DNA of 5,926 bases. Source: a virus (taxonomy: Monodnaviria; Loebvirae; Hofneiviricota; Faserviricetes; Tubulavirales; Inoviridae). Of the stretch, positions 1,859-3,319 are shown one piece after another. Location: positions 1 to 5,926 of IMG/VR virus record IMGVR_UViG_2547132272_000001. One strand, 5' to 3'. A model generated the notes under the pieces. It saw only the letters and a list, made by a program, of their open reading frames with translations. It made no database searches and was not told the DNA's origin. Position 1 is the stretch's first letter. The number at the start of each line of letters is the position of its first letter. The translations under genes and the position numbers were made by a program.

Positions 1859-3319
1859 ATGCGCTTGGGCTGTAATTCAAGGTTTTCGGGGGTAACAATA
1901 ATTTTTTTATATATATTTATTACCCTTTATCCATTTTATTCATATGCTTTTTTACCTTTGCTTGCTGCCCGTTCTGTTCTGTCTACTGTTGTTAGTCGAG
2001 TTGTTGTTAATCGTGCTATGCAAAGTGCTGCTAACGATGCAGTATATTTGACTCTTGTAAATAATACCCGGCGCTCTGTAACTTCATCTATTATGAAAAA
2101 GGCGTCTTCTATATCGTCCAGCTCTTTTTATAGAGGGGCAGGTGGGGCTCTTACTTGGGCTGGCGTTGGTTATACTTCAGGAACTATTAGTGCAAATTAT
2201 TTTTCTGGAGATGATTATGTTGTTGCTACTTCTGGAAAACCTGATGGTAATGGAAAATATATTGTTACTGTAAATGGTATCGATTATGTAGCTGACTTTC
2301 TTCCTTCTGAAAGCTCGCCATTTATAGCTCTTGTTGGTAGTGATGTGTCTCAGGGGGCGACTATTGTTGAACAGAATAAAGTAACTTCTGAAATGGGGCC
2401 TTATTTTTATTATATAACTTCATCAAAAATAGCTTATGGTAGTTCTTCTTCTGTTGCTCAGGCTGTTCTTGCTGCCAAGGATTTTAGTGCTTCTTGTAAG
2501 GGGCGTGATAGCTGTACAGCCACTGCATCAATTAAATCCATTACAACATCCAGTCCTGTATCTGCTGCTTTAGTTGTCTATGATTTAGATGTTACTTTTA
2601 AAAATAGCAAAGGAGAAATGACAACCATTACAACACAACATAAATTTCAACTTAGTTTTAATTCTGATTATGTTCCTAAAGAAGAAAGCCCTACCGATTA
2701 TAAAGTGGCTTCTGATAAGGATGGTTTTTCAGCACTCGAAAAATTAAAAGATGTTTCTTTATCTTTGGATGAAGTTGCTTCTTTTATTAATCAGTTATTG
2801 TTAGATGCATCATCTCAGCCTGGTTATGATGGAATTCCTTTTTCTCCTTCAAATCCTGTTACTGGTTCTGAGATTTCAAAAGTATATCCTGATGCGAATA
2901 AACTCAATAAATTTGATTGGTTGTATCCATCACAAAATGGTGTTAATGGCGATATCAATATAAATGTTGATAATTCATCATCTAACCCTGATAGCAAACC
3001 TGACATACCTTCTGATGGCGTTATCAATGTTGATTTAGGCGATTATCCTGAACCAACAGAACCTGATATTTCCAATGTTCCTTCTGCATCTGAAATACTT
3101 CAGCCTATCGTTGATTTGTTTCCTTTTTTGAAGGGCTTTGATATTTCTAAATCTATGAGAGCATCAGTCTCTTGCCCAACTGCGTCTTTTGAGTTGTTTG
3201 ATAAGACTTATCATGTTGATACTCAATGTGTTTTATTTGAGCAGAACAGGGTGTTAATTCAGCTTGTATCTTCTATTGTTTGGGCGTTTATATCTCTTAG
3301 AATCATTTTGTCTGCGTGA
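1859..3319 (+). CDS. gIII: Adsorption / minor coat protein pIII (about 486 aa from ATG 1859). The N-terminal and central regions are divergent and Ser/Thr/Asp/Asn-rich; the C-terminal domain is conserved and ends in a membrane anchor
   Basis: A long ORF after the gVIII terminator. The C-terminal region SVSCPTASFELFDKTYHVDTQC...IVWAFISLRIILSA parallels the M13 pIII C-terminus (ECRPFVFSAGKPYEFSIDCDKINLFRGVFAFLLY...), with the same Cys...Cys spacing followed by a hydrophobic anchor. A signal-peptide-like stretch ...IIFLYIFITLYPFYSYA resembles the M13 pIII leader end PFYSHSA. The start is uncertain: the ORF track opens at TTG 1826, and ATGs lie at 1847 and 1859; 1859 has GGGGA 5 nt upstream. Confidence 0.75.
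   Translation: MRLGCNSRFSGVTIIFLYIFITLYPFYSYAFLPLLAARSVLSTVVSRVVVNRAMQSAANDAVYLTLVNNTRRSVTSSIMKKASSISSSSFYRGAGGALTWAGVGYTSGTISANYFSGDDYVVATSGKPDGNGKYIVTVNGIDYVADFLPSESSPFIALVGSDVSQGATIVEQNKVTSEMGPYFYYITSSKIAYGSSSSVAQAVLAAKDFSASCKGRDSCTATASIKSITTSSPVSAALVVYDLDVTFKNSKGEMTTITTQHKFQLSFNSDYVPKEESPTDYKVASDKDGFSALEKLKDVSLSLDEVASFINQLLLDASSQPGYDGIPFSPSNPVTGSEISKVYPDANKLNKFDWLYPSQNGVNGDININVDNSSSNPDSKPDIPSDGVINVDLGDYPEPTEPDISNVPSASEILQPIVDLFPFLKGFDISKSMRASVSCPTASFELFDKTYHVDTQCVLFEQNRVLIQLVSSIVWAFISLRIILSA
2948..3034 (+). repeat. Short imperfect direct repeat inside gIII, encoding G-D-I-N-I-N-V-D and D-G-V-I-N-V-D
   Basis: ggcgatatcaatataaatgttgat (2948-2971) and gatggcgttatcaatgttgat (3014-3034) share atcaat...gttgat. 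They lie in an Asp/Asn/Pro-rich stretch just upstream of the conserved C-terminal domain. Confidence 0.4.

Follow-up and report, generated by a model that had tools for sequence, protein, structure and literature searches.

A modular pIII-type protein of a dif-linked Escherichia coli inovirus, with an ectodomain not detectably related to the Ff N1/N2 pair

Introduction

To our knowledge, the entry of filamentous phages into their hosts is understood only for the Ff-type phages and CTXphi, and we know of no sequence similarity between the pIII of CTXphi (OrfU) and the N1 and N2 domains of Ff pIII. CTXphi infects Vibrio, lacks a secretin of its own, integrates at dif through XerCD and has a Cys-rich pIII. 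In IKe and If1, a conserved N-terminal N1 domain binds TolA and a variable N2 domain binds the pilus. Here, we analyse the gene III (gIII)-type open reading frame (ORF) of a virus of the Inoviridae, IMG/VR record IMGVR_UViG_2547132272_000001, covered over its full length of 5,926 nucleotides (positions 1 to 5,926; hereafter the window). Our main subject is positions 1950-2940, which encode most of the periplasm- and outside-facing part of the tip protein.

In the Ff ectodomain, disulfides C7-C36 and C46-C53 lie in N1 and C188-C201 lies in N2 (PMC10175506). The UPphi phages (UPphi901) are dif-integrating inoviruses of E. coli, Salmonella, Klebsiella, Citrobacter and Yersinia. Their structural genes, including that of the g3p, are IKe/I2-2-like (~70% amino acid identity), the g3p carries GGGES repeats, and gIII is the most variable gene (PMC7307601).

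Modular organization of the gIII product

The gIII product of the window is a pIII-type protein, on the basis of synteny, its signal peptide and a C-terminal Cys-bounded hairpin followed by a membrane helix. Taken together, the evidence is probably best explained by a pIII-type tip protein of an E. coli inovirus that is built of modules, with a variable core placed among conserved parts, and that does not contain the N1/N2 pair of Ff. The gene and its parts are the following.

1859-3319, + strand: gene III-type minor coat/attachment protein, 486 aa plus stop (ORF list, synteny, phrog_3942)
1859-1948, + strand: predicted signal peptide, residues 1-30, cleavage predicted after SYA (SYA/F) (sequence inspection, homologue alignment)
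1949-2332, + strand: conserved N-terminal module, residues 31-158 (segment identities, conservation profile)
2327-2728, + strand: hypervariable beta-rich core and short linker, residues ~157-290, candidate receptor-specificity determinant (identity, HMM, substitutions)
2495-2515, + strand: C213-x5-C219 loop, the sole Cys pair of the ectodomain (alignment)
2729-2926, + strand: conserved module C1, residues 291-356, with QPGYDGIPFSPSNPVT (HMM detection, conservation)
2927-3073, + strand: Asn/Asp/Pro/Ser-rich flexible linker, residues 357-405 (composition, model confidence)
3074-3316, + strand: C-terminal anchoring module, residues 406-486, with a helix, the C439...C457 beta-hairpin and a terminal hydrophobic helix (HMM, AlphaFold2)

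The start of gIII was assigned to ATG 1859 because a 98%-identical homologue is equally long (exactly 486 aa). The predicted signal peptide has a basic n-region, a hydrophobic core and small residues at -3/-1 that are kept in homologues (AQA, AHA and AYS sites). Positions 1950-2940 correspond to residues 31-361, which begin directly after the predicted signal-peptidase site.

An exhaustive profile search gave 946 representative clusters at 50% identity, most of which match profile positions ~295-477 only, and about 12 of which match the full length. The 158 retrieved proteins were scanned with local hidden Markov models (HMMs). The HMM of residues 406-486 was detected in 157 of the 158 relatives and that of residues 291-356 in 151. 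Detection fell to 41-44 relatives for residues 31-115, 28-30 for residues 116-195 and 20-23 for residues 196-272. Identity to the homologues of Proteus, Providencia and Acinetobacter, which is ~41-48% for the whole protein, varies along the chain in a similar manner. It amounts to 50-68% for residues 31-115, 31-37% for 116-195, 21-27% for 196-272, 54-60% for 291-356 and 47-51% for 406-486. C1 belongs to the family-wide C-terminal region and not to the variable ectodomain.

At finer scale, a per-10-residue profile delimits a variable stretch at ~157-280, with small conserved islands at 191-200 and at the Cys loop; among 15 full-length relatives, identity in the core drops to 10-23% per 10-residue block. 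The core is shared at high identity with only two 90%-identity clusters (98% and 67%). Outside it, W100 of the TWAG motif and Y323, G325, P327 and T335 of C1 (QPGYDGIPF...T; QPxYxGxP motif) are each kept in 90% or more of 96 diverse relatives. The N-terminal module consists of a helical segment with AANDAVY, the TWAG(V)GY motif and the hairpin VATSGK..G.GKY.V...G..Y..DF.PS..NPF. In much of the wider family (P0052, P0058, P0081, P0088 and others), the N-terminal ~130 aa read RGFAANDPR and then continue into a Gly/Ala-rich hydrophobic stretch of ~40 residues with APxW. This stretch is long enough for a membrane hairpin, and the window protein retains only GAGGALTWAGVGY of it.

Between C1 and the anchoring module, the 54 residues of 357-410 include eight each of Pro, Ser, Asn and Asp. 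The length and composition of this linker differ among homologues, one of which, from E. coli, has GGSGGGS at this place. The linker (residues 357-405) is the positional counterpart of the glycine-rich linker of Ff and is not glycine-based in this phage.

Relation to Ff pIII

The first ~330 residues had been described, from the letters of the window alone, as Ser/Thr/Val/Asp-rich with few Cys, and their composition agrees with this. Residues 31-361 contain 16.0% Ser, 9.4% Val, 9.1% Ala, 6.9% Thr, 6.6% Leu, 6.6% Gly and 6.3% Asp, and Cys occurs only at 213 and 219. The same sequence-only reading gave the Cys pair as CxxxxC; the spacing in SCKGRDSC is in fact C-x5-C (C-KGRDS-C). C213 and C219 do not vary among the 11 closest homologues, and an alignment of the N-terminal part of 19 sequences keeps each at 90% or more; to judge from sequence, they probably form a disulfide. 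The remaining three Cys of pIII are C5, within the signal peptide, and the pair C439/C457 of the C-terminal hairpin.

Glycine is not concentrated as it is in M13 g3p. At most five Gly fall within any 15 residues, against 11 in M13 g3p, and Gly makes up 5.7% of the whole protein against 15.8%. Tandem Repeats Finder reported zero repeats in 1859-3319; the M13 gIII control gave eight rows across its two Gly linkers. The claim that Gly-rich linkers are missing is therefore sound as far as glycine goes, although a flexible linker does exist in the Asn/Asp/Pro/Ser-rich form described above.

The relation of the N-terminal part to Ff N1/N2, which the sequence-only reading had denied, was examined with profiles. 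PF05357 (Phage_Coat_A) is absent from the window protein and from 95 diverse relatives (M13 g3p control, 6.1e-66). With hhalign, the profile of the N-terminal part against a g3p profile of M13, IKe, If1 and I2-2 reached a probability of 0.4%, and the family profile against M13 g3p alone reached 0.2%. When all PDB chains, a set that presumably includes the CTXphi pIII-N1 entries, were searched with a profile at E<=10, the result was five chance-level matches, with no g3p and no CTXphi pIII among them. One PDB match, H. influenzae HI_0666, whose PDYQGIP aligned with the C1 motif at E=0.89, was judged to be due to chance. Foldseek against BFVD found nothing at E<=1e-3. It is probable that the ectodomain did not arise by divergence from an Ff N1/N2 pair.

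Two AlphaFold2 (AF2) models were available for comparison, one of the full-length protein (mean predicted local distance difference test, pLDDT, 58) and one of the N-terminal part with 19 sequences (mean pLDDT 69). In the latter, residues 32-56 and 60-82 are helical, though confidence there is low to moderate; most of 120-270 has a pLDDT of 66-95, with lower values at ~160-165, and residues beyond 275 fall below 50. The core is modelled as a helix on a three-stranded antiparallel sheet. In the full-length model, C1 is helical with a pLDDT of ~80, the linker 357-405 is below 50, and the C-terminus has strands at 442-446 and 449-453 and helices at 457-462 and 464-485. In the model of the N-terminal part, about eight short strands make residues 120-195 a small, predicted all-beta unit whose size class is similar to that of N1. 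This could be taken to mean that an Ff-type N1/N2 pair persists in strongly diverged form, its fold and its pilus-then-TolA mechanism kept while the sequence and the Gly linkers were lost. The low confidence of the early part of the AF2 model, the Ff-like gene order and the presence of a phage-encoded secretin, as in Ff, IKe and If1, would all fit. Set against the profile and PDB comparisons above, we regard such a hidden pair as very improbable.

The opposite end of the protein resembles Ff pIII in its layout. C439 and C457 are invariant in homologues and bracket a predicted beta-hairpin ahead of the terminal hydrophobic helix. The cryo-EM structure of f1 pIII has the same layout, with the H1 hairpin (C354-C371) and the M helix (PMC10175506). 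Once M13 had been removed from the family alignment, the sole hhalign match of the family to the Ff-group g3p profile lies in this C-terminal stretch, over 54 columns and with the Cys in register (E=0.005, probability 7%). An earlier comparison of the family with g3p, which had given a probability of 59%, was discarded since the family alignment contained M13.

The 486-aa product has no Pfam match at E<=0.1. It is matched by phrog_3942, of unknown function, with E=3.4e-146 over residues 41-497 in the numbering of a longer ORF, and its subdomains match separately.

The variable core and its probable role in receptor specificity

The whole region of ~330 residues had been proposed as receptor-binding and as the main determinant of host range. 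The ectodomain is, however, not one receptor-binding unit, because residues 31-158 and 291-361 are conserved and ~157-290 alone is hypervariable. The proposal thus probably holds for ~157-290, the likely specificity determinant on sequence variation, and not for the flanking modules, one of which (C1) is nearly universal among the 158 relatives.

Substitutions are distributed in the same way. The gIII of the window and that of its 98% relative differ by 36 synonymous and 11 nonsynonymous codons; the ratio is 6 nonsynonymous to 6 synonymous in residues 116-272, against 3 to 30 in the remaining mature protein (Fisher p=0.006). Larger replacements are seen at the same chromosomal locus of other E. 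coli strains. A tandem prophage of E. coli 300709 (L035) shares gII-gV at 90.7% DNA identity (window 28-1466) and has a pIII that is 38% identical. In E. coli PEC148 (L036), a pIII of 619 aa has only the last 110 residues in common with that of the window. Such a mosaic at one E. coli locus would be expected of an exchangeable specificity cassette that consists of the ectodomain, above all of its core.

Conservation can also be read the other way. The true receptor or co-receptor binder might be the N-terminal module (31-158), perhaps together with C1, acting on TolA or another conserved component of the envelope, and the core might serve as a spacer, a shield or an antigenically drifting surface. 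The region would then not be the main host-range determinant. These two modules are the best conserved parts of the ectodomain from Escherichia to Proteus and Acinetobacter, and W100, Y323, G325 and P327 are among the positions kept in at least 90% of the 96 relatives. In Ff, too, the TolA-binding N1 is N-terminal and conserved and the pilus-binding N2 is variable (PMC10175506). However, conserved modules that bind a co-receptor are compatible with a core that binds the primary receptor, and the nonsynonymous excess, together with the wholesale replacement of the core at one locus, is the pattern of a specificity domain. We consider it unlikely that the core is a bystander.

If the core is indeed the specificity determinant, the protein may work as follows, by analogy with Ff and CTXphi. 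Five copies of pIII would cap the virion, and their variable cores would bind a primary surface receptor that is specific to a strain or species. The N-terminal module and C1 may carry out steps common to the family, such as the engagement of a co-receptor, possibly Tol proteins, or an interaction with the membrane. The C-terminal module would anchor pIII in the virion tip next to pVI, open the tip and insert into the inner membrane. It is plausible that the primary receptor is not the F pilus. The sequence-only reading had further deduced a route independent of TolA from the missing homology to N1. This does not follow, because CTXphi pIII is reported to bind TolA and the C domain of fd pIII contacts TolQ/TolR (PMC10424213).

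We also advance, tentatively and as something possible though improbable, a more far-reaching proposal. The class of ~950 clusters of inovirus tip proteins may enter without an N1-like TolA-binding barrel. The conserved entry step would then be performed by the helical N-terminal element and the QPxYxGxP module, and the swappable cassette at ~157-290 would select a chromosomally encoded, F-independent receptor of E. coli.

Several points weigh against the modular tip protein that we favour. The homology of its C-terminus to Ff pIII is suggested by a weak score (the E=0.005 and 7% given above). The family members seen and the matching PHROGs are without exception annotated as hypothetical or as having an unknown function. 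The confidence of the AF2 models is moderate, as the mean values of 58 and 69 indicate, with residues 27-60 below 50, and the fold-level negative from these models is weak for the first ~90 mature residues. Finally, variability of the core could instead reflect evasion of immunity or defence, or relaxed constraint.

Gene order and small features around gIII

All long ORFs of the window lie on the + strand and follow the order of Ff (pII-pV-ORF76-pVIII-gIII-DUF2523/pVI-Zot/pI-secretin/pIV), and the identical order was found in more than 10 related loci. The genes and features other than gIII are given below.

85-1014, + strand: 5'-truncated gene II (PF05155/PF05144)
1028-1300, + strand: gene V (PF02303)
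1307-1537, + strand: ORF76, 76 aa with a C-terminal hydrophobic helix (phrog_3679, unknown function)
1547-1768, + strand: major coat gene gVIII (PF05356, phrog_2186)
1779-1800, + strand: 9-bp G+C-rich hairpin AGGGAGGGU-GAAA-GCCCUCCUU directly after the gVIII stop (RNA fold)
1806-1895, + strand: unannotated hydrophobic ORF of 29 aa, MISLYDLWCVVAFLWGLLCAWAVIQGFRG, between gVIII and gIII, in a frame different from that of gIII, of which it covers the first 37 nt
3316-3636, + strand: DUF2523/pVI-like gene
3640-4710, + strand: Zot/pI
4676-5926, + strand: secretin/pIV

ORF76 occupies the place of the two genes VII and IX, of ~30 aa each, in Ff, IKe and If1. Read from ATG 4676, the pIV ORF has its first 35 nt in common with the end of pI (4676-4710). 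In related loci, gene callers alternate between secretin starts that give 416 aa and 404 aa.

The 29-aa ORF is probably a small virion or assembly protein of the pVII/pIX kind. Its segment WGLLCAWAVI recurs unchanged in 11 other loci, although their pIII proteins are only ~36-43% identical. It has no PHROG match and is mostly not called as a gene in related loci. The conserved start of pIII, MRxG, is explained by the overlap of this ORF with the beginning of gIII. The signal-peptide codons 1-30 of gIII, which include the overlapped codons, show zero synonymous changes relative to the 98% relative.

The RNA fold of 1760-1815 has an energy of -17.2 kcal/mol (z=-1.9), and the hairpin within it has the position of the annotated post-gVIII stem-loop of IKe. 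A simple terminator scan misses the hairpin at 1779-1800 because it has no T-run. A Proteus prophage has a different hairpin at the equivalent place after gVIII.

Host, integration site and relatives

In E. coli, the phage occurs as a filamentous prophage adjacent to dif; it encodes a secretin and is uncharacterised. Identical pIII proteins are indexed in 51 blocks of the assembly collection and also occur in the IMG/VR uncultivated viral genome (UViG) UViG_3300026224_000007. Prophages with the identical pIII adjoin dif in E. coli draft assemblies. In long contigs, they are bordered by hipBA and an autotransporter gene on one side and by a LysR/aldo-keto-reductase region or a ydeT-type fimbrial operon on the other. 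In contig L028, the upstream flank is at best 99.7% identical to complete E. coli chromosomes, and the downstream flank matches at ~98% identity over 96% of its length or at 99.7% over 92%. The whole window has a G+C content of 35.5% and a strongly T-rich coding strand, and the host flanks are nonetheless those of E. coli. A Salmonella or Proteus-like host, considered in view of the 35% G+C, was rejected for the exact window type given the flanks of L028 (~98-99.7% E. coli).

An exact E. coli dif site, GGTGCGCATAATGTATATTATGTTAAAT, is located ~450 bp beyond the pIV stop in three contigs (L028 14517-14544, L012 5348-5375 and L004 5737-5764), and the related prophage of P. mirabilis is flanked by a dif-like site that has one mismatch. 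The window itself contains no dif-like site. A dif site flanking the prophage implies integration of the XerCD type. The 98% relative was found in a contig labelled Salmonella enterica Braenderup, with flanks of 47.8% G+C and the same exact dif site.

At the DNA level, the gIII of the window was absent from all 5,426 complete E. coli genomes searched. Relatives with 38-48% pIII identity are often tandem prophages and come from Proteus mirabilis, Providencia heimbachae, Lelliottia nimipressuralis and an Acinetobacter metagenome-assembled genome; the Lelliottia and Providencia loci were obtained by an alignment-based contig scan. Among GenBank phages, the only megablast match of the window was to 165 bp of the secretin gene of Dulem virus 52. 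A tblastn search with pIII gave three metagenomic inoviruses, with similarity confined to the C-terminal third, and tblastn with the distant members P0052 and P0081 added only Pseudomonas phage PMBT54 (last 43 aa). From these GenBank searches we conclude that there is no isolated, characterised phage with this ectodomain.

That the prophages are chromosomal and often in tandem, and that conservation across the family is strongest in the C-terminal half, might suggest that the protein only caps or terminates the virion, in the role of the pIII C domain. Receptor recognition would then fall to ORF76 or the 29-aa ORF, or the element would be non-infectious and transmitted vertically as a dif-linked prophage. 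Such an arrangement is hard to reconcile with an exported ectodomain of ~330 residues under purifying selection (the 36:11 ratio above), which is difficult to explain without a function. In addition, the products of ORF76 and of the 29-aa ORF resemble pVII and pIX in being small and in having a single helix. The presence of the identical pIII in contigs of many samples (the 51 blocks) and of relatives in several genera implies horizontal spread, which also counts against it. We give this arrangement very little credence.

Implications

Among 56 known inovirus genomes, pI was the sole conserved marker gene (PMC6813254). Divergent pIII ectodomains are the rule in these phages, and the ectodomain described here therefore overturns nothing and is ordinary for its class. 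Its standing as the most novel part of the window, asserted before the analysis, is debatable for this same reason (PMC6813254) and in view of the conserved, unannotated 29-aa gene that overlaps the gIII start.

What the analysis adds is that a large family without a Pfam model, and with PHROGs of unknown function, is now anchored to the best-studied host, E. coli. The domain map indicates what to exchange (~157-290) and what to keep (the other parts), which should be useful for M13 retargeting libraries such as those of PMC12477597 and for finding the receptor of the dif-linked E. coli inoviruses. At least three ectodomain types of this pIII family at one E. coli locus, together with the IKe-like g3p of UPphi at dif, constitute a natural experiment for the comparison of host range. 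Should entry without an N1-like barrel prove true, it would represent a new entry architecture of filamentous phages, and would provide a new E. coli receptor and a receptor-binding domain cassette for M13 retargeting.

Comparison with described systems

The window protein and the g3p of Ff, IKe, I2-2 and If1 are alike in genomic setting, with the gene located between gVIII and gVI, a cleavable signal peptide and a pIV secretin encoded by the phage itself. They are also alike in overall plan, with an ectodomain, a flexible linker and a C-terminal anchor made of a Cys-bounded beta-hairpin and a terminal hydrophobic helix. In the window protein, unlike in Ff g3p, neither N1 nor N2 was recognised from sequence, profiles or the predicted fold, the last being a weak negative for the first ~90 mature residues, where model confidence is low. 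The window protein has two Cys in the ectodomain, whereas Ff g3p has six, and an Asn/Asp/Pro/Ser-rich linker in place of the GGGS/EGGGS repeats. It further differs from Ff in a conserved, probably helical mature N-terminus and in an additional conserved module (291-356) ahead of the linker.

The pIII of CTXphi (OrfU) is comparable as a pIII analogue with a pilus-then-TolA logic (PMC10424213), but the PDB profile search gave no sign of any similarity between it and the window protein. UPphi, with UPphi901 compared by its description, shares the E. coli host, a prophage adjoining dif, tandem copies (on the window side, in related prophages) and a variable gIII. It differs in its g3p, as the pIII of the window belongs to another, unannotated family without GGGES repeats. 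The closest likeness is to that family itself, the hypothetical proteins of phrog_3942 and its ~950 clusters, with which the window protein shares the signal peptide, the N-terminal module (AAND...TW.G), the C1 motif and the C-terminal anchor. Its members come from prophages of E. coli, Proteus mirabilis, Providencia heimbachae and Lelliottia nimipressuralis, from IMG/VR UViGs, and from Dulem virus 52 and Inovirus D_HF5_61.

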